Assembly (NCBI GenBank): GCA_903944345.1
Contig: CAJARJ010000020.1
Span: 18,110-82,109 of the forward strand
From: Candidatus Omnitrophota bacterium
GTDB lineage: Bacteria; Omnitrophota; Gorgyraeia; Zapsychrales; Fredricksoniimonadaceae
Length of the DNA stretch: 64,000 nt
Reading direction: 5' to 3'
The translations under genes and the position numbers were made by a program. This document shows, piece after piece, positions 24,993-42,402 of this stretch (the first letter of the stretch is position 1; each line of letters starts with the position of its first letter). The notes below the pieces were generated by a model. That model saw only the letters and a program-made list of their open reading frames with translations. It was not told where the DNA came from and ran no database searches.

Positions 24993-26270
24993 TCAGAAAT
25001 TAATCAGCAAGCCCGTGCTTTCGCTCAAAGGCTGCTCAAAATAACTCCCGCGATTTTCTTTGTACGAGTTTTCTGCCAGCAGACGAGCCCGGACAACGTC
25101 GGCAGAGCCTGACAGACGGCCCAGCATGTCCTTGTAAACAGCAGGGAAATACTCTTCTTCCCGGGCTGCAACAAGCACGGCGCGCAAAACCTCCCGCTTG
25201 TTTTCAATAATCGATCGATAGGCTTGCGGTAACCGCGGCAACAACAAACAATGCTCCAGGTAATTAATGGCCCGGATATAGACCTGCCGGGCCTCTGCCA
25301 GAGCCAGATGCGAAGAAAGCACCAAAACACGTGCTTCGCGAACAGAATCGGGCAGCATGTCCAACTGCGCCAGGATCCTGTCAGTAACCGGCACCCCGGG
25401 CAGAGACAAACGGATCAGCTTGCCCTCCGAGACCCGCCCGTCGAGCGAAAAATCTTCTGCCGCCTTCTGCCAGAGGGCGACAAACTCCTGCCGCGCCTCC
25501 GCGACAACAGAGGCAAAGGAACGTTTAGGAAAAACTTCGCTGATATCATTGGCTGTGATCACCACTTCCCCGCTGAGCGCGGCGACCTTGTCACCCTCAT
25601 TAAGCTGTGGAAGTCCCAGCAGTCCCACCGCATCACGCACAACATGCACTGACCTACGCCCGTCTTCAAGCGTCCCGGCATCCTGAATGCAGGGCAGAAA
25701 TGAAAACGGCGCTTTGACCTTGCGACAATCGCCAAGCGCCCGCATCAATCCGTTATCCTGCCTGGCCAGCAGACATTCCCGGACTGAAAGCTTGCGCAAG
25801 CGTTCGTTCAGGTTATCAGAGGGTAAATCCAGCCTTAATAGTCCCAGCTCTTCCAGCAACAAGCTCTGCATGGACTGTGTCCGGTAATGTTTAACAATAT
25901 CTGCCAGCGCGGGACTGGAATACGACAAACGCAACAGGTCATACGCACTGACCGGAACCTTATCCAGCAGGCGTCGGGATAAAAGAGGCCGCAGCCCCTC
26001 CTCAATTTCCTGCCGGAACGCCAGCTCACGATCGTCCAGGCGTACCGGCCGCAGCAGCGGGCCAGTCGAAGCCTTGTCCAGCTCGCTCACTTTGGCTTGG
26101 TGCTGTGCGCGGTCAAGGCCCGGTGTCCGATAATAACAAAACCCCCGGTCGTCAATAACCGCCTTGCGTAAACGGGTATCCGCAGGCGCGTCCGGTGCAA
26201 AAATATCAGCGGCCGCCGGCACTCCCACCAAAAGCAGAACCAGAGGGAACCATCTTAGAACAAACAGCAT
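24993..26270 (-). CDS. hypothetical secreted Leu/Arg-rich helical protein (last gene of the T4SS-like operon; TraH-sized)
   Basis: Start placed at ATG 26270 (MLFVLRWFPLVLLLVGVPAAA, signal-peptide-like), 16 nt inside the traU 3' end. No recognisable motif. Confidence 0.4.
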   Translation of the reverse strand: MLFVLRWFPLVLLLVGVPAAADIFAPDAPADTRLRKAVIDDRGFCYYRTPGLDRAQHQAKVSELDKASTGPLLRPVRLDDRELAFRQEIEEGLRPLLSRRLLDKVPVSAYDLLRLSYSSPALADIVKHYRTQSMQSLLLEELGLLRLDLPSDNLNERLRKLSVRECLLARQDNGLMRALGDCRKVKAPFSFLPCIQDAGTLEDGRRSVHVVRDAVGLLGLPQLNEGDKVAALSGEVVITANDISEVFPKRSFASVVAEARQEFVALWQKAAEDFSLDGRVSEGKLIRLSLPGVPVTDRILAQLDMLPDSVREARVLVLSSHLALAEARQVYIRAINYLEHCLLLPRLPQAYRSIIENKREVLRAVLVAAREEEYFPAVYKDMLGRLSGSADVVRARLLAENSYKENRGSYFEQPLSESTGLLINF

Positions 26271-27157
26271 TCTTTCTGTCTCCAATAAATCCAGACATAA
26301 CTGCCGTCCGCCGAACGCCGGCCGTTCTCCCACAGATCCGCCTGCTCTCCGACGCGCAAGCAACGGCTCTTTGACGGAAAGACCATCTGCAACCGATCCC
26401 TCAATTTGTCTGGCGAGAACATGGCCGGCACAATAATCCGATGCGGAACCAGCATGTTCAACGAAGCAATATCCACCGCCCGGTAGGCTGCCACGGCCGA
26501 GCCGACGGCCTCGCTATAATGAACCAGCTGTCCGGTCCGCGGAAACAACGGCCCCCAGCTGCCCAGACATGCCACAGCCGACAAAGGATGCAGGAAGTTC
26601 TCACACACCGGCCCGGCTGCGGCCAGAAGACGCGCCAGAGGATGCCCTGCTTCCCCGCGACCAACGCGCCACTCGGCAGCGTCAATCTCACTTAAATAGG
26701 ACAATGGCCCCGCAAGATCCGGGGGCCCCTCGCACGGCGCCAGAATAAGAGCAGACACCTGATCAGATAAAGGAAAACCGTAAACATGAACATCGTTCAT
26801 TTGCAAGGCCGTGGTGTCGGAGGCGTACGCGCTCCCGCTGTCGGGAGCGGCCTGACATTCCGCCGCCGCAGTAATGGTCTTGTTCCCCAATGACTGCAAA
26901 AACTTTCCCGCCAACGGACGCAATTCGTCAATCATGACCCGGCCCGGCATCTTGACGGTCTCAACAAGCAAGACCGGTTGACGGTAACGCACTCGCACCC
27001 CCACAAAAGGAGGAGTCGACCGCCGACAAACACCGATCACACGAAAATCCACACAATCCAGATCAGCGCGTAATGCCAGCGTGGACAGACTCTCAGCGCA
27101 GACAGGTACGGACAGCACAAGCCATATCAGCACAGAAACATTTATTACCCGGAACAT
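26255..27157 (-). CDS. traU: F-type conjugative-transfer pilus-assembly protein TraU family
   Basis: 300-aa Cys-rich secreted protein. ...YLSEIDAAEWR... and the C-terminal ...WIYWRQKECCLF closely parallel F-plasmid TraU (...AYLSEIDPTW... and ...LMWRKRNCVFL). AGGAG SD 7 nt upstream. Confidence 0.7.
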   Translation of the reverse strand: MFRVINVSVLIWLVLSVPVCAESLSTLALRADLDCVDFRVIGVCRRSTPPFVGVRVRYRQPVLLVETVKMPGRVMIDELRPLAGKFLQSLGNKTITAAAECQAAPDSGSAYASDTTALQMNDVHVYGFPLSDQVSALILAPCEGPPDLAGPLSYLSEIDAAEWRVGRGEAGHPLARLLAAAGPVCENFLHPLSAVACLGSWGPLFPRTGQLVHYSEAVGSAVAAYRAVDIASLNMLVPHRIIVPAMFSPDKLRDRLQMVFPSKSRCLRVGEQADLWENGRRSADGSYVWIYWRQKECCLF

Positions 27158-27178
27158 AAGAGCTCTCCTGCCGGAACA

Positions 27179-28102
27179 TCAGCCGCAACGAATGATCCAG
27201 AACATGGCCAAAGACGGCTGCATATTATTGTGCGCCTGGCCGCCCCCAGCGTTTTCTGTCGGATGAAGATATGGCACCGCCGGAATATTGTCATAATCCA
27301 GCGACTCCGCGTTCCCTTGCGCTGACCCGCCCCACCCCTGATTCTCGCTGAAAGTGTAATCATACATATTATGCTTGTGAGCGGGCATTTCCGGGATCGT
27401 CAACACATGCATCTCTGCCCCCAGCCGGCCACCTAGTACCGATGCTGACGGATGACTAACCACATTCGCCGCACTGCCCGTCATATTGTCCATTCCAATG
27501 GGCACGCGTCCCCGAAGGTCAGGCAAGGCAAACGTACTTGTTCCGTCTCCAGCACCATAAACTGTACCGATCAACGCAAACAAAAGAGTGTACTGCTCAC
27601 GTGAAATCGTCCGGCCGTCGCAAGGCAACCAACCCTCAGGTATTGTCGTGCCGGGCCAGGGGATCATGCTGCCAATCGGAAGGGCGGCATCAGGATCCTG
27701 GGCAAAACCGATATCCGACTGCACCCGGCCGTCTTGAACAACGCTTATTGGTGTCATACGCGCAACAAAGGCGGACAGCTGCGCAGGAACTTCTGTCTCA
27801 AGCATCATCCCGGCCCCCGATGAAGATAAAACATACTGACCTCCAAAAGGGTTTTTGCCCTCCCACGCCGCAGGCATATAGCCACCCTCCCTTAAATTTT
27901 GCCAATTCTGCGGCCAGACATGCTCTTTACGCTGAAATGCCCTGACAGCCTCGGTGATCCGCCCTATCTCCGCGACCGTGATGCGGGCAGCCTCAAGCTG
28001 GACACCGCGCAGAACACCGGGCACAACAATACTGACCAGAAGCCCCGCAATCAGCAGAGAAATCGACAGCTCAATCAGAGAAAATCCCTTGTCCGACCCC
28101 AT
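27179..28102 (-). CDS. type IV (pseudo)pilin with C-terminal phage tail-collar domain
   Basis: Prepilin leader MGSDKG|FSLIELSISLLIAGLL (Gly at -1, Phe at +1, Glu at +5). C-terminal half IPEGWLPCDGRTISREQYTLLFALIGTVYGAGDGTSTFALPDLRGRVPIG...HKHN matches the phage tail-collar fibre domain family (MdpB-like). Strong SD TAGGAGGTGGT before the ATG. Confidence 0.7.
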   Translation of the reverse strand: MGSDKGFSLIELSISLLIAGLLVSIVVPGVLRGVQLEAARITVAEIGRITEAVRAFQRKEHVWPQNWQNLREGGYMPAAWEGKNPFGGQYVLSSSGAGMMLETEVPAQLSAFVARMTPISVVQDGRVQSDIGFAQDPDAALPIGSMIPWPGTTIPEGWLPCDGRTISREQYTLLFALIGTVYGAGDGTSTFALPDLRGRVPIGMDNMTGSAANVVSHPSASVLGGRLGAEMHVLTIPEMPAHKHNMYDYTFSENQGWGGSAQGNAESLDYDNIPAVPYLHPTENAGGGQAHNNMQPSLAMFWIIRCG

Positions 28103-28110
28103 ACCACCTC

Positions 28111-28551
28111 CTAGAAAGTCGCCAGCCAGGTTTTGGCCCCTGCGTCATAGGAAAGTGTTTCCGCTTTCCCCCGAAACAATCTGGAAAGACCAGCCGCAGC
28201 ATTATCCGGCACACTCGAAAGCGCAATGTCCACCCGGGTGCGATCCGCTGTATTTGCGTTCACCCGATAATCACCGCCATAACTGTTTGCCCCCGTCGGG
28301 TCAAACGTAGCGGGCAAATACCCGGAACTCTTCATGGCTTCGATACTAATACCTTCATACGTCAGACTCATCACCGACAGATAGTTTTGCGCTGCCAGAC
28401 GCAGGTTATCAACCGACTGGGCCTCTCTTTGCAGACGTGCCTGCGCAGCCATCCCCCCTCCAGCACTAATCATGCCGACGAGCATGGCAATAAGTCCCAA
28501 TGCAATCGAAAGTTCAACAAGAGAAAAACCATCATTTTTGTTTACTCGCAT
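28111..28551 (-). CDS. type IV pilin / pseudopilin (prepilin-type N-terminal cleavage/methylation domain)
   Basis: 146-aa ORF. MRVNKNDG|FSLVELSIALGLIAMLVGMI class III signal. AAGGAGGAG SD. Confidence 0.7.
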   Translation of the reverse strand: MRVNKNDGFSLVELSIALGLIAMLVGMISAGGGMAAQARLQREAQSVDNLRLAAQNYLSVMSLTYEGISIEAMKSSGYLPATFDPTGANSYGGDYRVNANTADRTRVDIALSSVPDNAAAGLSRLFRGKAETLSYDAGAKTWLATF

Positions 28552-28582
28552 CCGCTCCTCCTTTTTTATTTTAAAACACCCC

Positions 28583-29662
28583 TCATGGGTGCATCATCCC
28601 TATATTTGCCAGATTCCCATACAGCGGCCTGAAAAAGGCAAAAACCAGCAACGCCATCACCCCCGCACACAGAAGGATCAACGCCGGCTGCAAAAAATCA
28701 ACAACCCGCTTGACCCGGGACTCCAGAGAACGCCGGCATAGCTGGTAACCCCGGAAGAAATACTCGTCAAGGCATCCGGATAACTCCCCGACTCTAAGAG
28801 TCTCGCCAACCCAGGAAGGGAAATACGCATCCTGCAAAAACGCGGACGACAGCATCTGCCCGCTGACCAGTCTGGTCCGGCAAGAATTCATGTGATAACG
28901 AGTCCGGCCTCCCGACGCGACAGCTGCCTCCGCCAGAGATTCATCCAGAGTAATTCCGCTTTTAAGCATCAACGACAACAGAAAAAATCCCATGGCCAGC
29001 TCCCGATCCCGAATCAGTCGCCCCACAAAAGGACACCGGGCCTGCCAGCCCGAGAACACAAGCGGCTCGGTTCTTTGCACCAGCCAAAGTCCGCCAACGA
29101 TAAGTAAGACAATTCCCAGCCAAAACGGCCACTGCATCCTCACTGTGCAAGCCAGACGCAACATGCCCCCGGTCAAAGGCCCGGAAAAAGTGCTCTGCGG
29201 CAAAAGGCTGCCCAGCCGCGGAACAATCTCGAACGAAATATAACCGGCAACCAAAAGCAGAATGACCAGCACAAACAAAGGATATCCCATAGCTCCAGCC
29301 AGCTGATGTCCTACCTCGTCGCTGGCATGGTAATATTCCGCCAAAGCCCGGGCTGAACGGGAAATTTGTCCTGCCTTGCCGGCAGCGTTGAGTGCGCGCA
29401 AGGCACATTCTTCGAAAATACCGCACTCCCCCATGGCCTGCCCAAGAGACAAGCCCCGGTCAAGGGAACGAAGCATATGCGCACAGGCCCGCGCCAGCGT
29501 CCGGCTTCCGGAAGCCCCTTCGAGGCAGCGCAGCGCGGCACCAAGCGAGAGTCCGGCAGAAAGCATGTTGGAAAGATCTTCGAAAAAGAACGCGGCCTCA
29601 GCCGCCGACAGCTTCTGCCCGGAATAGAATATCCTTAACCAAGAACCCTGACCGCTTCGCAT
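28583..29662 (-). CDS. type II secretion / type IV pilus platform protein (GspF/PilC family)
   Basis: Two T2SS_F-like repeats with TM helices (..FFFEDLSNMLSAGLSLGAAL.. and ..LAEAAVASGG..). Start chosen at ATG 29662 with a GGAGG SD. The ORF is open to 29854 but would overlap the upstream ATPase by 220 nt. Confidence 0.7.
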   Translation of the reverse strand: MRSGQGSWLRIFYSGQKLSAAEAAFFFEDLSNMLSAGLSLGAALRCLEGASGSRTLARACAHMLRSLDRGLSLGQAMGECGIFEECALRALNAAGKAGQISRSARALAEYYHASDEVGHQLAGAMGYPLFVLVILLLVAGYISFEIVPRLGSLLPQSTFSGPLTGGMLRLACTVRMQWPFWLGIVLLIVGGLWLVQRTEPLVFSGWQARCPFVGRLIRDRELAMGFFLLSLMLKSGITLDESLAEAAVASGGRTRYHMNSCRTRLVSGQMLSSAFLQDAYFPSWVGETLRVGELSGCLDEYFFRGYQLCRRSLESRVKRVVDFLQPALILLCAGVMALLVFAFFRPLYGNLANIGMMHP

Positions 29663-31245
29663 AACGACAACACTCCTTCCCTGACCAAACGACATGCATC
29701 TGCACGCATAGAAACAAACCCCGCGCGGGCGGCCTGCCGGGGCACAAGTTCGCTCATTAACCCCTGCTCGATAAGAAACCGGTCTTCTTCCTCTATACAG
29801 AAAATCTCGGCCACCACTGTCCTCCCGCTGAAGCCACCCCGGCAAGCGGAGCACCCAGCGGGGACAAAAAATTTCCGGTCACTGTGCAAAAGATATGCCT
29901 CGGCACCCGAAGGGATGCCACGGATATCCCCTTCCTTACGGCATTCCGGGCACAATTTACGCACCAGACGCTGGGCTATCACACAATTTAAAGTTGCGGC
30001 CAGATGCGCCCAATCCACGCCAAGGTCTCGCAGACGAAGAAAAGCTCCGGTCGCACTATTGGTATGCAGAGTAGAAAAAACCCGATGTCCGGTCTCTGCC
30101 GCCCGGACAGCCTCGCGAGCGGTTTTCTCGTCGCGAATCTCTCCGACCAGTACAATATCCGGATCATGCCGCAACAAGGCTCTGGTCACATCCGGAAAAT
30201 CGTATCCCTTGGCGCTGTCAACACTGACCTGGGTGACACATGAAGCCCGTACTTCAACCGGATCTTCCACAGATACGATCTTGATCTCGCTATCTTTTAC
30301 CCGACCGATCATGGCATGCAGTCCAGTGGTCTTACCGCAACCGGTCGGACCGGTGATTAAAACCAGTCCATGCGGACGCCGCAAGACGCGCTCCAGCACC
30401 TTCTGGTGTTCCGGCGAATATCCAAGCGGTTCCAGGGACATGGCTTCCCGCCCGCGTTCCAAAAGACGCAAAACCAGCGCAGAACCATTTAAAGACGGCA
30501 AATGGGAAACACGCACATCGACGACCCGTCCCCTGGCCTCAAATTCGAAACGGGCATCATGGAAACGCAAAAAGTCCCCCGCGCTGATCCCGGCACGCCG
30601 AAAAACCCGATTGACAAAAAATGGATGCTCTCCCAGCGGCCAGGAACGGTGAAAATGCAAAACACCGTCGATACGCAACCGGCTCTCGAAAGAAGACGAC
30701 GAAGGCTCGATATGAATATCTGTTGCTCCGGCAACTACAGCCTCGACCAGAATCCGGGCAACAGGATCATCGTCACCGGAATCCGCCCCTTCCGGTTCAG
30801 GACTGACACCACCGCCTGAAGAAGGCCTCAACAACTGCAAGGCCCGGTCAAGAGCACGCGGGGCGGCAACCATAAAAAAGATCTGCGAACCAAAAAGAGC
30901 CCTTAACTCATCGGTCAGTCCGGTCTGCAGGGTATCAGCCAGCACAAAAAATCGGCGTACGGCGCTCCGGGCCGGAAAAATCTTGCGCTTCCTGAAAAAG
31001 TCTTCCCCCAAAGCAGACAAAGCCTCCTGATCCACGCTCCAGTCTCCGTCATAATACGGCCACCCCGACTGCTCTGCTACAGCCCGCGCCACATCTTCTT
31101 CCCGACTCAAATGCTGTTCGACCAGTATCCGTCCCAGACGCCGGCCGCCGCCCTGCGCTTTTTGCACGGCCAGACACATGCTCAAATCTCCTGGACGCAA
31201 CTTATTGCGGCGTATAAGTATAGATCCAAGCCTTTCAGCACTCAT
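29635..31245 (-). CDS. GspE/PilB-family secretion ATPase with MshEN-like N-terminal domain
   Basis: 536-aa ORF. Walker A GPTGCGKTT, Asp/His boxes, tetracysteine CPEC...CSAC. N-terminal ~140 aa resembles the T2SSE_N domain. ATGA overlap with the upstream gene. Confidence 0.85.
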   Translation of the reverse strand: MSAERLGSILIRRNKLRPGDLSMCLAVQKAQGGGRRLGRILVEQHLSREEDVARAVAEQSGWPYYDGDWSVDQEALSALGEDFFRKRKIFPARSAVRRFFVLADTLQTGLTDELRALFGSQIFFMVAAPRALDRALQLLRPSSGGGVSPEPEGADSGDDDPVARILVEAVVAGATDIHIEPSSSSFESRLRIDGVLHFHRSWPLGEHPFFVNRVFRRAGISAGDFLRFHDARFEFEARGRVVDVRVSHLPSLNGSALVLRLLERGREAMSLEPLGYSPEHQKVLERVLRRPHGLVLITGPTGCGKTTGLHAMIGRVKDSEIKIVSVEDPVEVRASCVTQVSVDSAKGYDFPDVTRALLRHDPDIVLVGEIRDEKTAREAVRAAETGHRVFSTLHTNSATGAFLRLRDLGVDWAHLAATLNCVIAQRLVRKLCPECRKEGDIRGIPSGAEAYLLHSDRKFFVPAGCSACRGGFSGRTVVAEIFCIEEEDRFLIEQGLMSELVPRQAARAGFVSMRADACRLVREGVLSLCEAVRVLG

Positions 31246-31697
31246 AACTCCACCCTCAGGACAATAGTTTCCCCCTGCGCACCTGTCAGAATTGCACCAT
31301 TTTCATCAAGCGAACTGACTTCAAAACCGCCAACACGCTCTTTTTCCCTTGCCCAAACTTGCTGGGCATCAAACTGAAAACAGCCCCGCCAAATCCCCGC
31401 GATAGAAACAACCGAACGCAAGGATAGCGTCAGCGACTGCGCCCGGGAAACCCCGTCCTTCGCTATATCACTGACCTGCAATGGGATATCCGTCCCTATT
31501 TTTTTTAACTCGTGCTCTACTCTGGCTTTTTCCAGATCAAGCTGCAACAGACGCAAGGATTGCTCTTTATCCTGCACACTGGAAGAATATGCTCTTAAGC
31601 GCGACAAAGATTCCTTCATATCCTCTTCTCCTGCTCTGACCGGACCTGACTGCAGCAAAAATGCTGCCACAATTACGGCTATTCCTGTTTTGATCAT
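31242..31697 (-). CDS. hypothetical periplasmic protein with signal peptide (part of pilus/secretion module)
   Basis: 151-aa ORF. MIKTGIAVIVAAFLLQSGPVRA signal peptide. ATGA-coupled to both neighbours. No motif recognised. Confidence 0.35.
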   Translation of the reverse strand: MIKTGIAVIVAAFLLQSGPVRAGEEDMKESLSRLRAYSSSVQDKEQSLRLLQLDLEKARVEHELKKIGTDIPLQVSDIAKDGVSRAQSLTLSLRSVVSIAGIWRGCFQFDAQQVWAREKERVGGFEVSSLDENGAILTGAQGETIVLRVEL

Positions 31698-32188
31698 CCT
31701 TTCACCTGCTCCCCTTTCACAACAATGACCAGCGTTAATACATCTTTTGTTTGTTTAAACTCTTCGAGCTCGAACAATCCTGAACGCATCCCCCCCGAGA
31801 TCACCGCCAACACCCGGCCCAGCATGGCCCGGTCACGGACAGACCCCAGCGATACCTGCAGGCGCGAAGAGTCCAACCCGTCGGCAGCCTCTGGCGAATC
31901 TGTGGAGGTCTGCCCCAAAGAGATTGTTTGCAGAAACACCGAAACTCCTTCCGCCCGGGTCAGATCCTGCAAAAATAGCGTCAGTCGTTCATGCGCCCCT
32001 GAAAGATCATCCGGTCGGCTGTGCGGTAAACTTTGCAAATTCTTTAAACGGCCCCCATCTTGCTGTAACCGGACACGAATCTCCTGCAAGGAAGTCTCCA
32101 CTGCGCGGACAGACTGGTAAACCCCAAGACCATTGTATAAACAGGACACAACCAATCCGCCGGCAAACAGCACAAGAAACAAGCGCAT
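31694..32188 (-). CDS. GspM/PilO-like bitopic inner-membrane protein (assignment by topology only)
   Basis: 164-aa ORF. N-terminal TM (LFLVLFAGGLVVSCLY) followed by a coiled-coil-like periplasmic region. Position is between the GspL-like gene and the ATPase. Confidence 0.35.
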   Translation of the reverse strand: MRLFLVLFAGGLVVSCLYNGLGVYQSVRAVETSLQEIRVRLQQDGGRLKNLQSLPHSRPDDLSGAHERLTLFLQDLTRAEGVSVFLQTISLGQTSTDSPEAADGLDSSRLQVSLGSVRDRAMLGRVLAVISGGMRSGLFELEEFKQTKDVLTLVIVVKGEQVKG

Positions 32189-32210
32189 ACCTTCCCTCTC
32201 TCAACAGACA

Positions 32211-34792: not shown

Positions 34793-35220
34793 TCGAGCTC
34801 TCCTTGCGTAATTTTCTGCCCCGATCCCGGCATCGGGGTTATGTCTGCGACAATAAACGCCCCGGAATGCGTCGGCGATTGCACCACTGGTACTGACAAA
34901 GGGAAAGCTCCGCTTTTCTTCCATTCCCCCGGGGTGATAATGACCGGCTCGGCATGCCGGGGATAAAAAACACCATCGGCAATATGCGCCGGAATGATCA
35001 CATCCTGAACCAGAGGAGCGCTCCAGCTGCCGTCAAGATACGGGAAATCATTACCGTTTAACCCTTCAACCACGTCTCCTATCTGTGCCGACACACCGGC
35101 TCGATACCCCTGCAAATACGTACCGCGTTCCCTGCGGCTGAAGTTCTTCTGCCCCACGCAACCGGCAGAGGCCAGCAGAACAACCACCAATCCCACCCAA
35201 CATCCCCTAACGTAACCCAT
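34789..35220 (-). CDS. lipoprotein (candidate secretin pilotin or TraW/TrbC-position accessory protein)
   Basis: Start at ATG 35220 (MGYVRGCWVGLVVVLLASAGC, lipobox LASAGC). 143 aa. The ORF is open further upstream but would overlap traC. Confidence 0.45.
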   Translation of the reverse strand: MGYVRGCWVGLVVVLLASAGCVGQKNFSRRERGTYLQGYRAGVSAQIGDVVEGLNGNDFPYLDGSWSAPLVQDVIIPAHIADGVFYPRHAEPVIITPGEWKKSGAFPLSVPVVQSPTHSGAFIVADITPMPGSGQKITQGELE

Positions 35221-37723
35221 GTGGCATCTTTCCGGCGCACACCATAAGCGCCCTGGTGAGGTTCCCATCCTGTTGACGACGAATTTCATCCAGAAATTCG
35301 TTCTCCCTGGCATCGCTGGTTGCCGCCCAATACAAAAAAGGATCAGGAGCCAGACGAATGACCCCGCCGCCTGTACCGGCAAGCAGCAAAGCTTCTGAAT
35401 AGCGCCCCCGCACCGTAACCAGAGAACGCAAAAGTTCCCCGGTCTGCGGACTAAAGGCCAGCTCCCGGCACAACCGTTCAATAATCCCGCTTTCCTGACG
35501 TAAAAATATCTTGTGCGCGCTATTCGCCAGGATGGCCAATCCTGCCGGCTGCTGCAACAAGTCAGCGGTTTCCTGGGTCACCGCCACAGCCGCACAGCGA
35601 TATTTCCGAAACGTTTTGAAAGCCGCCGAAATGAAATCCGCTGTCGATGACGTTTTTAACAACTGCCAGGCCTCATCAATAATCAGAAACTTGTTTTTAC
35701 CGCGCAATTCCTCGGCCGAAACAAAGCCGGTTATCAAAAACATGATATTAAGCAAGGCCACCAGTTGCAGATCCGGGTAACGGGAGATTTGTGCCAGTTC
35801 AAAGACCGTAAAACGTCCTCCGGGTGCAAATTGATTCTGCCCGTCAAAGAAAGCCCCATACTGTCCCCTGCGGGTATAGGGCATAAGTCGCAGGGCCAGG
35901 CGAAACGCCATATCTGCTCCGCTGACCCCGGCGAAACAAACCGAAGGATCTTCCAGAACGGATACCACATCGCTTAGAACCAGCTCCCGACTACTGTTTT
36001 GATCATGCCGGGCATACGCCTCCAGCACAGCCAGATGCAGAACCCCTTTCTCTTCCCGCGAAAGGCGGTCACGTTCGTCCCCTCCGCTGGCCATTAATGC
36101 CAGCATATCTACCAGAAAAGCCAGCCCCTCGGACTGAAGCGTCCTGGCAAAAGGATTTATCAACACCGGGGAAGACATATCGAGTGAAACATAGCTGCCA
36201 CCCAGCACCTCGCAGGTCTTCCGGTAAGAGTGCCCCTTGTCGAGCACAAAGAAATGCGCTCCGGTCCGGTAGTTCTGATGAATAAAATCATTGGTAAAAA
36301 ATGATTTCCCTGCTCCTGAAGCGCCAATAATCACCGCATGCGGATTGGTGTCGGAATCAAACAGATCGAAGAACACCGGCTCCCCCCTGCGGTTAAGATA
36401 AACCGCCGCCGGCGTGCCAGTTCCCTGGAAGGCCCCATATAAAGGAAGCATATCCGCAAGATTGTCCGATAACATTCGCCTTTTACGTCGGATAAAAGGT
36501 TCGCGGCGATGATCATAATTCAATGGCAGGCAAGTCAGAAACAATGACGACCCGATAGCATCTTCCCGCACAGCCTGCATTCCACTGCGGCCCAGAAGAT
36601 GAATAATATGATCGGCCTGTCGCAACGACTCCTGCTCGTCAACACTGCCGCAGACAAAATGAATCCTGGCCTCAAGAACCGACTGTCCTCCCTGAAAAAG
36701 CCGGCTAATGACCGCACTAAGCTCTTCTTTCTTGCCTACGGCCTCCTCGCTGACATCTCCCAGCGAGGAAGACCGACGGATGAAAGCAAAAGCTTTCTGT
36801 GCCTTGAGCTTGGCGAGCGCCCGGCTCTGATCAGGCACAATAAAGTTGAAGACCATAGCCATATCGCCCAGCTCATCCCAGAAGCTTCCTCTGTGCCCGG
36901 CCAGCAACATCCCGGCGAAAGTCTGTGCGGGAAGCTCTTTAATGGTGACCATCCGCAGGGTCGTGCCGTCAAGTTTCAGCCCTTCGGAAGATATTTTCAC
37001 CGGACTATACAAAAGCTGATCCCGAATAAAACCCTGATCCCGAACGGGAGGCGGAACATGCTGCGAACGGCGGGGATTGAGCATTTTATACAAAAGAGCA
37101 GTTATGTCCTTTCCATCCAGGCAGACACAGGCAAGCCCCAGTGAACGCAGACCATTCTCGATCTGGCGAACCTGCCGCAAAAATTTCTCTTTATGTTCCT
37201 GCCATTGAAGAGAAATGACGCGTGACACCTGACGAGTATCACAAAAGAAAGCCTCTGCCCTGACCCCGCCAGGCACATTCCGCCAGGAAGGAAAGACGCG
37301 CACCGAGAAAATCAGCCTGATCCGCCTGACTTTCACTCGGTCCATCGTTTGTCCGTTTCGCGCCAGTGCGACCATGGAGGTCAAACGGCTGTCAAGCGCT
37401 GCGGCCACCACTTCCGAATTCTGCGCGCAACCAAACAAGCGATAACGCTCCAGCAAAGGCTCAATATCATCACTCCCCCATAGAATCACCTGCGCGTGTA
37501 CATCCGACGGAAGAGTTCCGATAAAAGCGGCCAATCCCAAAGAAAATTTTTCCCGCTCCTCGTCACAGGCCAGCTCCACATCACGGCTGACGATTTGCCA
37601 GACCCGACCCAGGCTGCCATCAACATTCAGTAATACGCCCTCAACCTCTTCTGCATAGGGCAAGTAATCAGCCAAAGATGGGCCATCGGCAAAAAGCTTG
37701 TTTATATCCTGGTCTTTCAACAT
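35207..37723 (-). CDS. traC: F-type T4SS ATPase TraC (VirB4 family)
   Basis: 838-aa ORF. Walker A VIIGASGAGKSFFTND, Walker B FLIIDEAWQLL. Size and position (after TraV-like lipoprotein, before TraU) match F TraC. Confidence 0.8.
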   Translation of the reverse strand: MLKDQDINKLFADGPSLADYLPYAEEVEGVLLNVDGSLGRVWQIVSRDVELACDEEREKFSLGLAAFIGTLPSDVHAQVILWGSDDIEPLLERYRLFGCAQNSEVVAAALDSRLTSMVALARNGQTMDRVKVRRIRLIFSVRVFPSWRNVPGGVRAEAFFCDTRQVSRVISLQWQEHKEKFLRQVRQIENGLRSLGLACVCLDGKDITALLYKMLNPRRSQHVPPPVRDQGFIRDQLLYSPVKISSEGLKLDGTTLRMVTIKELPAQTFAGMLLAGHRGSFWDELGDMAMVFNFIVPDQSRALAKLKAQKAFAFIRRSSSLGDVSEEAVGKKEELSAVISRLFQGGQSVLEARIHFVCGSVDEQESLRQADHIIHLLGRSGMQAVREDAIGSSLFLTCLPLNYDHRREPFIRRKRRMLSDNLADMLPLYGAFQGTGTPAAVYLNRRGEPVFFDLFDSDTNPHAVIIGASGAGKSFFTNDFIHQNYRTGAHFFVLDKGHSYRKTCEVLGGSYVSLDMSSPVLINPFARTLQSEGLAFLVDMLALMASGGDERDRLSREEKGVLHLAVLEAYARHDQNSSRELVLSDVVSVLEDPSVCFAGVSGADMAFRLALRLMPYTRRGQYGAFFDGQNQFAPGGRFTVFELAQISRYPDLQLVALLNIMFLITGFVSAEELRGKNKFLIIDEAWQLLKTSSTADFISAAFKTFRKYRCAAVAVTQETADLLQQPAGLAILANSAHKIFLRQESGIIERLCRELAFSPQTGELLRSLVTVRGRYSEALLLAGTGGGVIRLAPDPFLYWAATSDARENEFLDEIRRQQDGNLTRALMVCAGKMPHGLR

Positions 37724-37725
37724 CT

Positions 37726-38133
37726 CTATGGCTCCTTGGCCGTATCCGGAACTTGCGGAATAATGACGGACATCTCCTGATCCATTCCCTGTTGTCGATC
37801 AATAAACCATTCGGCCGGGCGCAACATCACAAATGCCCAGTGCCCGCCAACCATTACCTCCCGCTCTCCTCCGGAAACATGCGCGGGCACCCAGACTTTG
37901 ATAACCTTGGGAGGAAGAACAACGGGGACATACGGCTTCACATGCCCTGTATCGACTCCCCAAACCACCGTTTGTGACTCTTTCTCTGCCCCCGAAGACC
38001 GGGCAGCAGCACGATACGTTCCTCCCAAGGTCACAGCGTCTTTCCTGACGACACTCACCGGACCTCGTGCAGACAAAGAGCAGCCGCTAGTCAACAGAAC
38101 GATAAAAATCAACCGAATCCCGAGCCATCCCAT
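37726..38133 (-). CDS. TraV-like outer-membrane lipoprotein
   Basis: 135-aa ORF. MGWLGIRLIFIVLLTSGCS lipobox. Position between TraB and TraC as in the F tra operon. No sequence motif beyond the lipobox. Confidence 0.45.
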   Translation of the reverse strand: MGWLGIRLIFIVLLTSGCSLSARGPVSVVRKDAVTLGGTYRAAARSSGAEKESQTVVWGVDTGHVKPYVPVVLPPKVIKVWVPAHVSGGEREVMVGGHWAFVMLRPAEWFIDRQQGMDQEMSVIIPQVPDTAKEP

Positions 38134-39241
38134 GGATACGAAATCCTTTCTGTACGATCACATACACACGTACTCCCGGTTGAACCATCACTGCCGGAAC
38201 AATCATGTCCAGTTGCTGCTGGTAGTACCGCGACAACTGTGCGGTGCTCTGGGCCATCCCCGAAAAAAGCGCATGTTTGGCCGCATTGCCGGTCAATGTC
38301 CGTGACTCTTTCCCGTCTTGCGTAACGGCAGAGACTTCCCCGTCGGCGACAGCCTGCGAAGCTCCGCCCATAAACCCACTCATAAACGATGCCGCCAGAC
38401 GCCCTGCGGTATTGCGCACAACCACACCTTTAAGCCCCAGCTGCCCCGAACGATCCGTCAAATACCCGAAAACTCCCGACTGTTCAAAACTTGCTCCTGT
38501 CGGAAAAACAGCCGCCAGTTTTTCCGCTTCAATCAAAGCCCGCTCGCTGTTAAGATCGCCCGTCGCCTTGCCCAGAACAAAAGCTCCTTCAAGTGCAATC
38601 GCCGAAGCATTCGGACCGGTAAAGGCTTCATCAAGCCTGATCAGGACGGGCAAAGAATTGTTCCCGTCCGCCGGAGCGTACACTCCGGTCAACAGTGTCC
38701 CCGACACAAAGCTGCCCGCCGGCAGATACACATCCATGGACTCCTGATCGGGTTCCTGCACGGCTACTATGTCAAGCTGCTGGCGTGATTCTGCCCCATT
38801 CTTGTCTGCTGGTTCGCTCCCTTCCCTACGTAACCGTTTGGCAACCGCCTGCAGGCTCAGCACAGCAGTTTTTGTTTTCTTTATCGATTCACGCATCTCC
38901 TCGAACCTGGTGTTAAGTTTTGTAACCTTGCGGGACATTTCGTCATTCTTGCGTGCGACACTGTCATATTGTTTTTCCAGGCGTTCGACATAAGCCTTGC
39001 GATCCACCTCTTCTCCCAGAAACATTCCTCTGCCCGTATCTTTAAGTTGCCCTGTCGAAGAAACAGCCTGTACGACACCATGAGACTCCTGCCCTTTGCC
39101 TCTCTCCTGTTTTGACGAAAAGACAAACATCAGGACAAAAAAAAGAGCCGCTCCCGCCGCAATAATCAGCAGACCGCTCTTCTCACTTCCGGACCCAACC
39201 CTTTCAAACAAACCGCGCAAGCGGGCTAACAAATCTTTCAT
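38087..39241 (-). CDS. traB: F-type T4SS core protein TraB (VirB10 family)
   Basis: 384-aa ORF. N-terminal TM (LLIIAAGAALFFVLMFVF), coiled-coil region, C-terminal beta-rich domain ending ...IVPAVMVQPGVRVYVIVQKGFRI typical of VirB10/TrbI. Confidence 0.65.
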   Translation of the reverse strand: MKDLLARLRGLFERVGSGSEKSGLLIIAAGAALFFVLMFVFSSKQERGKGQESHGVVQAVSSTGQLKDTGRGMFLGEEVDRKAYVERLEKQYDSVARKNDEMSRKVTKLNTRFEEMRESIKKTKTAVLSLQAVAKRLRREGSEPADKNGAESRQQLDIVAVQEPDQESMDVYLPAGSFVSGTLLTGVYAPADGNNSLPVLIRLDEAFTGPNASAIALEGAFVLGKATGDLNSERALIEAEKLAAVFPTGASFEQSGVFGYLTDRSGQLGLKGVVVRNTAGRLAASFMSGFMGGASQAVADGEVSAVTQDGKESRTLTGNAAKHALFSGMAQSTAQLSRYYQQQLDMIVPAVMVQPGVRVYVIVQKGFRIHGMARDSVDFYRSVD

Positions 39242-39957
39242 CGCCTTAACACCAGATACAGGGTTGTAGAATCACTCTTACGTCCGCGTGCCTGCAAGAT
39301 GTCTCGCTCAACCGTGCCAAGCAGCAGTCCCGGCAAACTCAACCTTTGCAGAGGAATCACCAATGCCCGACCAAGCAGATTCTCAGCCCGCACCACCCAT
39401 CCTTTAAGTTGGGCTGTCGTATAACTCCTGATCACAGTCAGACGCATGGTCTTATCCTGCCAGAGCAGCTCCGAATCGCTTGACTCCGTCGCGCCAGAAG
39501 GCTTTTGCCCTAAAACCATGGCCTTGAGCATGCCCAAAGCATGATCTTGCCTGAAGGAAACAGCGGCCGTATCTCTGGAGATATAAATACGTTCCCCCGA
39601 AAAAACCTGTTGCTCAAGAGAAAGCTCCGAGGAGGAAAACCTGATCCTGAAAGAACGACCTCCACGATCAATAATCACCAATTCAGAATTATCACAACGC
39701 CGTGGCGTAACAAAAACCCGGCCGGGCGCATGTTCTACCTCGAGCGCTTCGGAACTTCCTGAACGAACCAGGTGCGACACTCCGCCCTCGACAACTATCT
39801 CGGTCATGTGCCCCGGAGTGCACGCAATCAGGCTGCTTCCCTCTTGCTCAATACGTAGCGGCACCTGCGCCTCGGCCAAAGTACAGACAAAACATAATCC
39901 AAGAACAAAACCCAAGACCCTAAAGCGCATCCTCATCTGCCTCCTTTGACCAGACAT
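39238..39957 (-). CDS. TraK-like secreted protein (VirB9 / secretin-N-like), by size, signal peptide and position
   Basis: 239-aa ORF with signal peptide (RFRVLGFVLGLCFVCTLAEA). ATGA overlap with traB. The start may be 21-27 nt downstream. Confidence 0.5.
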   Translation of the reverse strand: MSGQRRQMRMRFRVLGFVLGLCFVCTLAEAQVPLRIEQEGSSLIACTPGHMTEIVVEGGVSHLVRSGSSEALEVEHAPGRVFVTPRRCDNSELVIIDRGGRSFRIRFSSSELSLEQQVFSGERIYISRDTAAVSFRQDHALGMLKAMVLGQKPSGATESSDSELLWQDKTMRLTVIRSYTTAQLKGWVVRAENLLGRALVIPLQRLSLPGLLLGTVERDILQARGRKSDSTTLYLVLRR

Positions 39958-40507
39958 CCTCTACAACAAGACCATAAATATTCTCTCCAGCCGCCGGGAC
40001 TCGCCGCACAACAACAACATAACGCACATCTTTCATTGCAATTTCTTCCTTGCCCATATAAACCCCGCGCTTGCCGTCGATTTCTACCCGGAATGAGCGC
40101 CCTTCGGAAGCAACCCGTGCGTCATCTGTAAGCGTAAATATCGATGAAAGCCGGTCAGAAAGAATCTTTCCGCGTTCCTCCTGCGAACGGGCGCGGACTT
40201 TGGAAAGCAGCTGTGGTCCCATAAACCGGAAAGCCCGCGAATAAACTCCGTCAATCGTCTCTGGAGTATAATTCATCCAGTCCATTAACCAGGCCGAAGC
40301 GAAAGAAAGAACCGAACTTTCTGGTATCCGGTCGGGATAAGCCAGGCCCGCTTGTGCTGCCCCCGGAATATAATAGATCGGACGGGGCCGAAACGCTGTC
40401 ACCGCCAGCAATACAGCGAATATCACGCTTAAGCTTCCCAAAAGATAAAGAACATAATGCAGTTTTACATTCTCGAATTCCGCTCCGGCATAACGTTCAA
40501 AAAACAT
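39920..40507 (-). CDS. TraE-like bitopic protein (VirB8-like) of F-type T4SS
   Basis: Start at ATG 40507 with AAGGAAGG SD (MFFERYAGAEFENVKLHYVLYLLGSLSVIFAVLLAV). N-terminal TM plus periplasmic domain. Size 195 aa versus F TraE 188 aa. Confidence 0.55.
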   Translation of the reverse strand: MFFERYAGAEFENVKLHYVLYLLGSLSVIFAVLLAVTAFRPRPIYYIPGAAQAGLAYPDRIPESSVLSFASAWLMDWMNYTPETIDGVYSRAFRFMGPQLLSKVRARSQEERGKILSDRLSSIFTLTDDARVASEGRSFRVEIDGKRGVYMGKEEIAMKDVRYVVVVRRVPAAGENIYGLVVEDVWSKEADEDAL

Positions 40508-40793
40508 CCTGGCCTTCCTTGCTATAAATGCTGTAAAAACGCTCGGGCCCCGGCGGCAGCAATCCTCTGAAGCCAACTCCCTGCCGGTACAGCCAATGAA
40601 TCAGATATCCTTCCGGTTTCCCGCGCTTGAACGCGGCCAGACATGGCCAGATGAAAAACAACGCGATCAACGGAACTGCCGGAGAAAACACAATTGCCGG
40701 TACCCCGCACAATAAAAGAATCACAGCGACATCTTCACCCTCAAGGCCCAGAATAAGAAGAGGCCGGTCAATTGTTCTTGGACACGGTTTCAT
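40497..40793 (-). CDS. TraL-like small membrane protein (VirB3-like)
   Basis: 98-aa ORF. ...RTIDRPLLILGLEGEDVAVILLLCGVPAIVF... resembles the TraL/VirB3 N-terminal motif (P..i.GL...E...). Position right after the pilin gene as in F. Confidence 0.55.
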   Translation of the reverse strand: MKPCPRTIDRPLLILGLEGEDVAVILLLCGVPAIVFSPAVPLIALFFIWPCLAAFKRGKPEGYLIHWLYRQGVGFRGLLPPGPERFYSIYSKEGQDVF

Positions 40794-40794
40794 T

Positions 40795-41082
40795 TTATCC
40801 TCCGAATATCCCCAGAAAATTGGGCAGAAATACCAGCGCCAGCAAGGCTAAAACACAACCCACCGCGGCCCCGTACTCCTGATGAATAATTTTCCAGACC
40901 CCAATAAGTAAAAATACCAGCGCCAGAACCTTGGAAGCCGGTCCGGTCATAACCTTGACCATAAAATCCGCCAGACCGTTAAATTCCGTCACCGCCCGTT
41001 CCTGTGATCCCGACTGGGCAAAAGCAACCTGGCTCCACAAACTTAAGATCATCCCCGCCAAAACAGGCAACACCTTCTTCAT
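40795..41082 (-). CDS. conjugative-type propilin (TraA/VirB2-like)
   Basis: 95-aa ORF. Signal peptide MKKVLPVLAGMILSLWSQVAFA, then two hydrophobic helices separated by a short charged loop (KIIHQEYG), which is VirB2/TraA pilin topology. First recognisable tra gene. Confidence 0.6.
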   Translation of the reverse strand: MKKVLPVLAGMILSLWSQVAFAQSGSQERAVTEFNGLADFMVKVMTGPASKVLALVFLLIGVWKIIHQEYGAAVGCVLALLALVFLPNFLGIFGG

Positions 41083-42332
41083 ACGGCTCCTTTAACTGTC
41101 GGTTGAAAAATCATCTTTGCTCTCGTGAAAAATAAAAGCGCGCTCACCAGGACACACCCAAGAATAACGACAATCCCGACAGCCACTCCCACAGCCACTC
41201 CCAGAGATTCACGAAAGCCCTGCAGATCACTCCGCAGCAAAATAACCCGGCTGCAACTATCCAGAACCGTCAGACAAAACGGGCAAAGTTTGAGTACTAA
41301 CAACCCGCGAAAATACCCCAACAGAATATCCAGATTGCCTTTGAGCATAACAGCCAAAAGAAACACAGGAAAAAAGACATACCAACCGGCAAGCATTCCT
41401 CCCAGAACATAGGGCCAGCCACTCAAGACCATACGAGCCGCCGCAAGAAATTTGTCGAAAAGCTCATATGCCGGAATAACCCCGTCCTGACAAAACTTGT
41501 CCTGACAGGTAAAAACACCATATTCCCCCGGTCTGCGCTGCGTTTCCAGAATCAGAAAATCCCTGACCGAAAGCTCTACAACCGGACTTTGCAGACCAAA
41601 CAGCCTGTGAGCCTTCTCTAATAAGTGATTCTTGCCATCAAGATACTTATATAAAGACTCCTGCAATTCCCCCCAGCGACGCCCATCCTGCGCGGAATAT
41701 CGTGCAACCACCCTGGAATCTCCCGGCCATAATCCGGACGGCATAAGGCTGTTATTTTCCGACACAAGTCTTTTCAGAACAGGAAGATATGTTTCCGAAT
41801 AGAATACTTTCACCTGCTCCTTAAGACCGCCATCAGCAATGCCCTGTGAAAAAAGACGCGCCACCAGAACCGAAAGATTGATTGGCAGAAACGGACTCTT
41901 CAGAAAACCCTCTCCGGCAACCTCTTGAACTTCCATAATATTGATGAGATTATTGGAGAACCCATTCAATAGCTGCACTGTCGTCAAGAAAACCGGATTA
42001 ATCGTCAGCCTGCCCAACCCATGTTTTTCCAACAAGCCCGTTGTTGAAACCTCCCTGAAACCTCGTTCTTCCATAACCGACGGATATCCCGCAAGCTCAG
42101 TCGAGGGCAAAACAAATAACATCCATACACTAAAAAAAATCAAACAAAACATCATAAAAGGACGAATACTCCCCGCGCGGACAGATCGCCACAATGCCAG
42201 AATAAACCCCAGACCAAAAAGACTTTTGCCAAACGCACTTTGCAGAAAAAGAAATTCAATAAGAGCGTGTGAGCGATCCAGGCCTATTAATTCAAAAGCA
42301 TTCTCAACGGGCGTTATGGCTGACAACATCAT
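41079..42332 (-). CDS. polytopic inner-membrane protein, first gene of the operon (possible VirB6/TraG-N-like channel component)
   Basis: Start at tandem ATG ATG (42332/42329). The track ORF begins at a TTG four codons upstream. At least 8 predicted TM segments. ATGA overlap with the pilin gene. Confidence 0.4.
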   Translation of the reverse strand: MMLSAITPVENAFELIGLDRSHALIEFLFLQSAFGKSLFGLGFILALWRSVRAGSIRPFMMFCLIFFSVWMLFVLPSTELAGYPSVMEERGFREVSTTGLLEKHGLGRLTINPVFLTTVQLLNGFSNNLINIMEVQEVAGEGFLKSPFLPINLSVLVARLFSQGIADGGLKEQVKVFYSETYLPVLKRLVSENNSLMPSGLWPGDSRVVARYSAQDGRRWGELQESLYKYLDGKNHLLEKAHRLFGLQSPVVELSVRDFLILETQRRPGEYGVFTCQDKFCQDGVIPAYELFDKFLAAARMVLSGWPYVLGGMLAGWYVFFPVFLLAVMLKGNLDILLGYFRGLLVLKLCPFCLTVLDSCSRVILLRSDLQGFRESLGVAVGVAVGIVVILGCVLVSALLFFTRAKMIFQPTVKGAV

Positions 42333-42373
42333 TAGATTGTCCAATGGTCAATTTAGTTGACAATTACTCAACA

Positions 42374-42402
42374 AATATAGCATAAATTGACATCATGTCA
42401 AT
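42374..42402 (-). promoter_or_regulatory. sigma70-like promoter (TTGACA-N16-TATATT) for the T4SS-like operon, -35 overlapped by the perfect palindrome ATTGACATCATGTCAAT
   Basis: Read on the minus strand: TTGACA = complement of 42396-42401, TATATT = complement of 42374-42379. The palindrome attgacat c atgtcaat spans 42386-42402. Located in the 105-bp gap between rfbB and the first operon gene. Confidence 0.5.

Follow-up and report, generated by a model that had tools for sequence, protein, structure and literature searches.

A conserved operon in Candidatus Omnitrophota joins an F-like type IV secretion system with a type IV pilus and may build a composite cell-contact apparatus

The stretch of DNA analyzed here, called the window throughout, comprises 64,000 nucleotides from a Candidatus Omnitrophota bacterium (GenBank assembly GCA_903944345.1, contig CAJARJ010000020.1, positions 18,110 to 82,109). 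Within it, 19 genes, all on the minus strand, fill positions 24993-42329 as one tightly packed unit transcribed from 42329 toward 24993, with a largest intergenic gap of 31 nt and with stop and start codons overlapping at many junctions. These genes encode the core of an F-like type IV secretion system (T4SS), consisting of a TraG_N-like protein, a TraA-like pilin, TraL, TraE, TraK, TraB, TraV, TraC, and TraU, and, between traC and traU, a module resembling a type IV pilus or type II secretion system (34789-27179, counted as 10 genes, rows K to C below). We propose that the interval is a single operon building a composite cell-contact apparatus, conjugation-type T4SS plus type IV pilus, that is typical of Candidatus Omnitrophota, and consider the chances of this reading to be evenly balanced. 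In order of transcription, the features of the operon are as follows.

42374-42401, minus strand: promoter-like site, TTGACA-16-TATATT with a TG extension, 11/12 consensus match, upstream of the first gene
41079-42329, minus strand (S): polytopic membrane protein of 416 aa, TraG_N-like, in VirB6-type position (Pfam matches within the family)
40795-41082, minus strand (R): TraA/VirB2-like T4SS pilin of 95 aa (weak matches to PF04956 TrbC/VirB2, 4.4e-4, and NF041281 TraA, 3.6e-4)
40497-40793, minus strand (Q): TraL, VirB3-like (PF07178, 1.6e-6; TIGR02762, 1.8e-7, above cut-off)
39920-40507, minus strand (P): TraE, VirB8-like (PF05309, 1.8e-7; hhalign 77% against F-type TraE)
39238-39930, minus strand (O): TraK, VirB9-like (hhalign 97.8% against Neisseria/Hydromonas F-type TraK; TIGR03749 weak)
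38087-39241, minus strand (N): TraB, VirB10-like (PF03743 TrbI, 6.3e-23; NF010289 TraB, 1.1e-17)
37726-38133, minus strand (M): TraV lipoprotein, VirB7-like (PF09676, 0.0028; hhalign 94% against F-type TraV; Cys after the signal peptide)
35207-37723, minus strand (L): TraC/VirB4 ATPase (TIGR02746, 5e-117; PF19044, 4.7e-41; PF11130, 7.6e-25)
34789-35220, minus strand (K): lipoprotein of 143 aa directly before the secretin (lipobox LLASAGC)
33335-34792, minus strand (J): secretin (PF00263, 1.6e-28; MshL, 3.9e-54; PilN type IVB, 1e-44; hhalign 99.9% against plasmid PilN)
32211-33335, minus strand (I): membrane protein of 374 aa, a pilus assembly component by position only, found after the secretin in 20+ loci
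31694-32188, minus strand (H): bitopic protein of 164 aa with an N-terminal hydrophobic segment, a pilus assembly component by position only
31242-31697, minus strand (G): secreted protein of 151 aa with a signal peptide, a pilus assembly component by position only
29635-31245, minus strand (F): PilB/GspE-type assembly ATPase with an MshEN-like N-terminus (PF00437, 3.2e-97; GspE, 1.7e-99; PilB, 2.3e-98)
28583-29662, minus strand (E): PilC/GspF platform protein (PF00482, 1.4e-32; GspF, 1.4e-36)
28111-28551, minus strand (D): prepilin of 146 aa, probable major pilin (N_methyl, 4.7e-5; cleavage KNDG/FSLVE)
27179-28102, minus strand (C): modular prepilin of 307 aa with a phage tail-fibre receptor-binding (Collar) domain (N_methyl, 9.6e-5; Collar, 8.9e-26; Gp10_C, 1.7e-4)
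26255-27157, minus strand (B): TraU (PF06834, 3e-28; hhalign 98.3% against F-type TraU and 98.8% against TIGR03756)
24993-26270, minus strand (A): secreted protein of 425 aa with a signal peptide, last gene, possible remote TraH relative

The same gene set was obtained from independent gene calls on the 335-kb source scaffold (ENA ERZ18659518, scaffold_4), of which 84 kb were scanned as context: the window with 9 kb before and 10 kb after it. For three genes, the start of the longest open reading frame (ORF) lies too far upstream (29635-29854 and 34789-35481), and the independent calls give 359 aa for the PilC-like protein, 485 aa for the secretin, and 143 aa for the lipoprotein, compared with 423, 529, and 230 aa. 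Since traU and the last gene lie 3' of the pilus genes, the T4SS and pilus sets are interleaved rather than merely adjacent. The operon is flanked by gap (23750-24811) and rfbB/D/C/A (42450-45815), and gene calls and precomputed Pfam matches place only housekeeping genes in the rest of the 84-kb context. The TTGACA-16-TATATT site is the top sigma-70-like match within 24-43.5 kb, as a consensus match only, and such sites are not in excess there (15, versus 11.2 +/- 3.3 in shuffled sequences). The original prediction of a tightly coupled unit behind a single sigma70-like promoter and bounded by core metabolic genes thus agrees with these data. It had also set the only tRNA about 11 kb beyond the rfb genes. 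The tRNA-Gln (53298-53370) is indeed the sole tRNA of the window and lies about 11 kb from the operon edge, but only about 6.5 kb past the sugar-nucleotide genes; housekeeping genes separate it from the operon.

The T4SS half holds equivalents of VirB2, B3, B4, B6 (B6-like), B7, B8, B9, and B10 together with TraU and, judged from these assignments, would have the parts needed for an envelope-spanning complex and a pilus. TraC reaches 392 bits with TIGR02746, its best model, below the curated cut-off of 567, and exceeds the cut-offs of the Pfam models TraC_F_IV and P-loop_TraG; its Walker A motif (GASGAGKS) is intact. The putative pilin R has a signal peptide and two hydrophobic helices, and its place before traL is conserved among relatives. 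Protein S, with at least four hydrophobic segments, has only 66 relatives among 1.84 billion representative sequences, and a word-indexed homologue search returned only two near-identical proteins. The window member matches PF07916 TraG_N weakly (0.029), and the orthologue in Candidatus Velamenicoccus archaeovorus has a precomputed TraG_N match; because 12 of the 22 members of the S family match this model (best E 2.8e-14), a homologue of the TraG N-domain is considered present in the operon. Protein A may be a very remote relative of TraH, given that one of eight family members matches PF06122 (8e-6); its hhalign comparison with F-type TraH gave 0.5%. No assignment emerged when S, K, I, and A were compared by hhalign with F-type TrbI, TraW, TrbC, TraN, TraF, and TraH or with proteins of MPF_G plasmids (MPF, mating-pair formation), a comparison in which the TraW/TrbC/TraN/TraF profiles were applied to these four proteins and not to G and H. 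Sequence profile searches of the PDB with I, S, A, and K yielded nothing meaningful, and AlphaFold2 models built without an alignment were unusable (mean predicted local distance difference test score 36.8 for protein A and 33.5 for prepilin C). The original prediction had listed TraW, TrbC, TraN, TraF, TraG, and TraH as absent: the first four remain unmatched in S, K, I, and A, whereas a TraG_N homologue is present and TraH is doubtful.

The module between traC and traU comprises a lipoprotein, a secretin, three assembly proteins, a PilB/GspE ATPase, a PilC/GspF platform, and two prepilins. The secretin matches the PilN model below its cut-off. The lipoprotein K is a possible pilotin; it has no Pfam or PDB match, and hhalign gave only 38% against TraV. 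Proteins I, H, and G resisted classification: I has no match to PilO2, GspL, HofM/N, Pfam, or PDB, and a Pfam scan of all members of its family found nothing consistent; H has no match to GspM, HofO, or PilP; and G has no family match in Pfam or NCBIfam. Likewise, hhalign of I, K, H, and G against IncI-type PilL, PilM, PilO2, and PilP and E. coli GspC/L/M and HofM/N/O/P produced no assignment. The assembly ATPase has an intact Walker A motif (GPTGCGKT), and its N-terminus falls just under curated cut-offs with both relevant models (c-di-GMP motif, 37.9 bits versus 38; MshEN, 1.3e-4), a resemblance that suggests control by cyclic di-GMP (c-di-GMP). Both prepilins carry class III signal peptides with leaders of 6-8 residues (G/FSLVE and G/FSLIE). 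The probable major pilin D scores 96% against GspG and 92% against PilS-type pilins in hhalign, and the C-terminal part of prepilin C, the collar pilin, matches the T4 gp12 short tail fibre and the tips of long tail fibres in the PDB (1e-8 to 2e-3), which makes it a probable adhesin. With a secretin, a PilB-type ATPase, a PilC-type platform, and class III prepilins all encoded, the pilus half qualifies as a genuine type IV filament machine. Half or more of the operon is therefore a pilus module, so that the original description of a T4SS-like machine alone does not hold, and TraU is also present; its suggestion of an adhesive or filamentous function is plausible for an operon with its own pilus and a tail-fibre-like adhesin pilin.

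The comparison across genomes covered 80 fetched loci, searched with the 19 window proteins; phylum-wide prevalence lies beyond that list. The composite operon was found in at least about 45 Candidatus Omnitrophota genomes. All TraC relatives with identities between 92% and about 41% belong to this phylum, and the complete genome of Candidatus Velamenicoccus archaeovorus LiM is among their sources. Within the composite clade of the TraC tree, some records titled "uncultured Planctomycetales" are interspersed with those of Omnitrophota. Throughout this identity range, which spans three deep branches, the order S-TraA-TraL-TraE-TraK-TraB-TraV-TraC-K-secretin-I-..-PilB-PilC-pilin-collar pilin-TraU-A is conserved. 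Of the 35 loci whose sequence extends far enough downstream, 34 have a secretin after TraC and K; PilB and PilC occur in 16 of 23 loci, and the K family is conserved in 23. H and G have positional equivalents in other loci, and the collar pilin is conserved in all three branches. Members of the A family occur in 10 other loci from all three branches; for the Velamenicoccus branch this is L028, the position of A being mostly beyond the fetched range in its remaining loci. L028 retains a type IV coupling protein (T4CP), TraU, and protein A and has no secretin or pilus genes. The next-nearest TraC proteins, only 24-29% identical, come from metagenome-assembled genomes (MAGs) of Bdellovibrionota/Oligoflexia and from a second type of T4SS in Omnitrophota, both with another gene order and without a pilus module. 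This second Omnitrophota system carries a T4CP, VirB6, CagX, and integrases and is an ordinary system of the kind found in integrative and conjugative elements (ICEs).

Several further observations were made at these related loci. The closest TraC relatives outside Omnitrophota (L050-L058) belong to another predatory group, the Bdellovibrionota/Oligoflexia; in five of these loci (L052, L054, L056-L058) a T4CP gene follows TraC at 4-5 kb, and a pilus module is missing from the whole L050-L058 set. In V. archaeovorus (CP019384.1), the operon contains small insertions (L088:2895-4101; L090:5813-6807; L090:21646-22516): the collar pilin gene and traU are separated by a GNAT-toxin/TacA1 antitoxin pair on the opposite strand, traL and traE by an Imm_superinfect and NYN pair, and HTH_17 and ParB_N genes lie upstream. 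In L095, the traL-traE gap holds about 5 kb of additional genes, with a ParE toxin among them; this gap appears to be a hot spot for insertions. A family of large proteins (770-1800 aa), absent from the window, is encoded beside both composite operons and ICE-type T4SS loci of Omnitrophota (L008:2029-4353; L002:17274-20471; L042:17759-20653; L005:12195-16067; L069:3012-8396; L061:1820-6277); the two members scanned with Pfam (L008 and L002) had no match, and the family may represent a T4SS-associated substrate or accessory protein. Single MAGs sometimes contain two to four contigs with a composite-type TraC, as in CAYOMI01 (L013, L017, L019, L035) and nCal2bin1 (L001, L040), reflecting either several copies per genome or strain-mixed bins. 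If these are true copies, the T4CP-bearing version may still move.

The operon shows the features of a long-term chromosomal resident. Its GC content tracks that of the flanks over 18 genomes (r = 0.79; GC 0.35-0.59; mean difference 0.008). In the window, the correlation of relative synonymous codon usage is 0.94 between operon and flanks and 0.955 between one flank and the other, and GC at third codon positions does not differ (p = 0.14). A relative with a 92% identical TraC shares the rfb flank at a dS (synonymous divergence) of about 0.5; relative to it, all 19 operon genes have ratios of nonsynonymous to synonymous divergence (dN/dS) of 0.04-0.25 with dS of 0.35-0.81, much as the rfb genes themselves (dN/dS 0.05-0.14, dS 0.37-0.74). 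An identical TraC occurs on at least 15 contigs from several samples. These data argue for a vertically stable, long resident, and functional operon under purifying selection. The original prediction had called for comparisons of composition with the flanks and of locus presence across related genomes, and on both counts its view of an intact unit is supported by a chromosomal operon with purifying selection, no nearby mobility genes, and no compositional sign of recent arrival. Recent horizontal acquisition was excluded by the GC tracking and matching codon usage, a pseudogenized remnant by the dN/dS of 0.04-0.25 in all 19 genes, and chance adjacency of two systems by the recurrence of the interleaved order in relatives.

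Genes for DNA processing and mobility are missing around the operon. As originally predicted, no T4CP, relaxase, integrase, or transposase was detected in the window by Pfam or in the 84-kb context by gene calls, and hidden Markov models (HMMs) of Omnitrophota T4CPs and relaxase-like proteins found nothing among the six-frame ORFs of the window. The ICE-type loci of Omnitrophota, in which T4CP and integrase were recovered by the same methods, served as a positive control. No integrase, transposase, or att-like context marks the 84 kb as an ICE, and the single tRNA gene is 11 kb distant. The situation is different in the Velamenicoccus branch (L012, L014-L016, L018, L020-L022, L028, L029), one of the three branches of the TraC tree, where the orthologous operon contains extra genes between the TraG_N gene and traA/traL. 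The first encodes a protein of about 755 aa matching TraG-D_C, TrwB_AAD_bind, and T4SS-DNA_transf, a VirD4-type T4CP (annotated as VirD4 by NCBI in V. archaeovorus) with transmembrane segments and intact Walker A and Walker B motifs. The second encodes a 254-aa protein whose alignment shows invariant PDG...EVE...K residues, fitting a PD-(D/E)xK nuclease. This fold is found in MOBC relaxases such as TraX of pAD1. Four of nine members match PF13814 Replic_Relax (best E 3.1e-6), which represents the MOBC relaxase family (PMC5357655), and the 254-aa protein is accordingly a candidate MOBC-like relaxase. The flanks in this branch are ordinary and differ among genomes, with no integrase within about 7.5 kb upstream.

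HMMs of the Velamenicoccus T4CP and MOBC-like protein were negative for the window and for all loci of the other two branches. At the loci of those two branches, no T4CP lies closer than 10 kb to TraC; in most outgroup and ICE-type loci for which the sequence extends far enough, one lies 4-7 kb from TraC. In a neighbour-joining tree, the Velamenicoccus T4CP forms its own long branch outside the T4CPs of ICE-type and Bdellovibrionota systems, mirroring the TraC tree. Because its distance from other T4CPs is similar to that of TraC from other TraCs, the T4CP may have been present in the ancestor of the composite family, with loss or relocation in the branch of the window, as these trees weakly suggest. 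The matches listed in a homologue search with the Velamenicoccus T4CP all had at least 66% identity, and that search says nothing about a relocated T4CP in the window's branch. With a T4CP and a MOBC-like gene in the sister operon, the family was at its root probably a system for transfer of DNA or nucleoprotein, of which the window would hold a derived, reduced version. The suggestion of a domesticated MPF apparatus thus stands in part: the operon is intact, under selection, and without DNA-processing genes nearby, but it is not a pure MPF apparatus, and a sister operon has both a T4CP and a MOBC-like gene.

F-type operons carry TrbI and TraW between traC and traU, and TrbC, TraN, and TraF after traU. 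Like the F plasmid and the gonococcal genetic island of Neisseria gonorrhoeae (MPF_F), the window has the order traA-traL-traE-traK-traB-traV-traC...traU; its TraK, TraV, TraU, and TraE are recognizable by profile comparison with Neisseria/Hydromonas loci, the TraG N-domain is shared, and its TraC is closest to the F-type model, although at 392 versus 567 bits. However, it lacks TraW, TrbC, TraN, TraF, TrbI, and the TraG C-domain, TraH is doubtful, there is no TraD or relaxase, and a full pilus module lies between traC and traU. From the F-specific set for pilus assembly and stabilization, only TraU and a TraG_N-only protein are present. By its gene content, the T4SS half is F-like yet falls outside the F type.

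A T4SS and a type IV pilus likewise occur on one genetic unit in IncI1 R64 (MPF_I) and in elements of the PAPI-1/ICEclc type (MPF_G), where the thin pilus secures contact with the recipient, promoting IncI transfer and being essential for PAPI-1 transfer (PMC12857230). The order secretin, ATPase, platform, major pilin, and large adhesin pilin is shared with the thin pilus (PilL-PilV), the best annotated plasmid relatives of the window secretin are PilN proteins, and the window TraU is closest to the MPF_G model TIGR03756. The differences are nevertheless substantial. Two plasmids, one of MPF_G type from Vibrio and one of MPF_I type from Yersinia, carry their pilus and T4SS genes as separate clusters several kb apart, whereas the window has one operon; MPF_I and MPF_G elements have TraD, relaxase, and integrase (the T4SS cluster of the Vibrio plasmid includes traD), whereas the window locus is chromosomal and apparently non-mobile. 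Counterparts of PilO2, PilP, PilL, and PilM are unrecognizable in the window, and only the pilin N-termini align with PilS/PilV. In place of the long-leader pilins and shufflon of IncI/PAPI-1, the window has leaders of 6-8 residues, no shufflon recombinase, and a tail-fibre adhesin module. The pilus half, as read from its genes, is not a thin pilus of the IncI type.

A VirB-type machine without VirD4 in the locus is also encoded by Bartonella Trw, Bordetella Ptl, Brucella VirB, and Helicobacter ComB, and such T4CP-less systems make adhesive pili, export periplasmic cargo in two steps, or take up DNA (PMC12857230). Unlike the window operon, which is F-like and lies in a VirD4-free span of 84 kb, they are P-type proteobacterial systems without a pilus module; the sister Velamenicoccus branch, moreover, keeps VirD4. 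Deletion of the T4CP brings the F and pKM101 systems into a hyperpiliated, pilus-producing mode (PMC13463995). Southlakia epibionticum (Saccharibacteria) needs a T4SS as well as a type IV pilus to grow on its host (PMC12857230). Omnitrophota are ultra-small and are thought to be predators or parasites (PMC10066038); Saccharibacteria are similarly ultra-small and host-dependent but monoderm, with separate loci and a Gram-positive-type T4SS. Modular pilins such as Streptococcus sanguinis PilB combine a pilin N-terminal module with an adhesive domain (PMC8179133); the grafted module in the window is instead a Collar/gp12-like module of phage short tail fibres, and one targeted literature search found no report of a pilin with a tail-fibre module. 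Surveys of Omnitrophota mention Tad pili, type IVa pili next to unusual ATPases, giant proteins, and a Tad-like secretion locus, and no description of a tra/T4SS system in this phylum was found in the literature, with the original V. archaeovorus genome paper outside the search; TraC and VirD4 are already annotated as such in public records. Since T4SS-plus-pilus systems are known, what appears new is their fusion in one operon, in versions with and without a T4CP.

Taken together, the proposed apparatus might work as follows. Pilus extension, probably driven by a c-di-GMP-responsive PilB-like ATPase, would display a pilin fused to a phage tail-fibre receptor-binding domain and capture a target cell, thereby standing in for the missing mating-pair stabilizers TraN and the TraG C-domain in the manner of the IncI/PAPI-1 thin pilus. 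A role of the pilus as a device for target capture and contact stabilization is suggested by its occupying the TrbI/TraW place, by the receptor-binding pilin, and by the absence of TrbC, TraN, and TraF from the operon. Where the cells touch, the T4SS part would then build a channel or pilus across the envelope. With VirD4 and the MOBC-like protein, the machine of the Velamenicoccus branch may deliver DNA or nucleoprotein. The branch of the window would most likely use a coupling-protein-independent mode, namely pilus production, adhesion, or export of periplasmic cargo; alternatively, a coupling protein could be supplied from elsewhere in the genome.

A number of points weigh against this interpretation. 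The composite machine is known here as a set of genes, and the functional link between pilus and T4SS is drawn from operon structure. Secure assignments are wanting for 6 of the 19 proteins (K, I, H, G, A, and partly S), and no prepilin peptidase or retraction ATPase was found in the operon or window, although these could be encoded elsewhere. Some close relatives (L001, L002, L011, L042, L005, L007, L010), and L033 as well, keep the T4SS genes, secretin, and protein I while PilB through TraU are missing at the site; the pilus part is therefore dispensable or relocated in some lineages. The relaxase call in the Velamenicoccus branch is weak, resting on the four PF13814 matches among nine, with the V. 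archaeovorus member just under the Pfam cut-off, and the trees are neighbour-joining only, with finer groupings lacking support. Finally, a T4CP and relaxase may lie in trans beyond the 84 kb, in which case this copy would be an ordinary DNA-transfer system.

That last point leads to a split conjugation or DNA-transfer system, in which the operon provides mating-pair formation and VirD4 and relaxase are encoded elsewhere in the genome. The T4CP and MOBC-like gene in place in the orthologous Velamenicoccus operon, the apparently ancestral position of that T4CP, and the occurrence of a second, ICE-type T4SS with its own T4CP in some MAGs with a composite operon (L060+L030, L075+L028, L061/L069+L047) fit this explanation. 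It is nevertheless somewhat unlikely, since the 84 kb around the operon contain neither T4CP nor relaxase, the loci of the other two branches lack a T4CP at the distance from TraC usual in outgroup and ICE-type loci, and the ICE-type T4CPs belong to a different, complete system. Also considered was a competence-like machine modelled on H. pylori ComB, which would import DNA or nucleotides from host cells, whether lysed or attached; ComB is a T4SS that takes up DNA without VirD4, VirB5, or VirB11 (PMC12857230). The window operon likewise has none of these three, and type IV pili with secretins are the usual route of uptake; however, comEC, comEA, and dprA are absent from the operon and the 84-kb context, the T4CP and relaxase candidate of the sister branch point to export, and a tail-fibre-type adhesin suggests binding to cell surfaces rather than DNA, so that uptake is very unlikely. 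Most improbable of all is an integrated conjugative element in decay, or a mere juxtaposition of two unrelated systems. TraW, TrbC, TraN, TraF, T4CP, and relaxase are missing and gene content varies between relatives, as would be expected from decay, yet all 19 ORFs are intact and translationally coupled, every gene shows the constraint reported above, the order with traU and A 3' of the pilus genes persists across three deep branches, and there is no integrase or att-like context. On the combined evidence of GC content, codon usage, the shared rfb flank, and dN/dS, both decay and recent acquisition are ruled out.

Two other regions of the window deserve mention. Just downstream of gap, at 17598-23540 on the minus strand, lies a gene for a 1980-aa protein with an N-terminal hydrophobic signal-like segment, a papain-like Peptidase_C1 domain, PKD domains, and five InlB B-repeats (Flg_new_2); other genomes do not retain this gene beside the operon, and its product might serve a predatory lifestyle as a surface protease or adhesin. 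In addition, the region 797-16693 and the scaffold upstream of it (L086) contain at least five B12-binding radical SAM genes, an unusual concentration, interspersed with genes for glycosyl- and methyltransferases, a UbiA prenyltransferase, and a YfhO-like membrane protein. This region may be a cluster for cell-envelope or lipid modification.

Omnitrophota are widespread and uncultured, and the composite operon offers a concrete candidate for their host-contact apparatus, with a conjugation-type channel and a phage-style receptor-binding pilus in one operon that has been kept under selection across deep branches. In a bolder and rather unlikely reading, it would be a conserved organelle for contact with host or prey, whose tail-fibre-tipped pilus docks on a larger cell and whose F-like channel delivers cargo into bacterial or archaeal prey, this cargo being nucleic acid or nucleoprotein in the Velamenicoccus branch or other cargo in the branch of the window. 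Predator RNA has been seen inside dead Methanothrix cells (PMC13153191), and if the organelle reading were true, the apparatus would provide a route for that RNA. The family also forms a natural series, with a coupling protein, without a coupling protein, without pilus genes, and without a secretin, and this series could reveal how conjugation machinery is re-tooled and how the stabilization of mating pairs passes to type IV pili.

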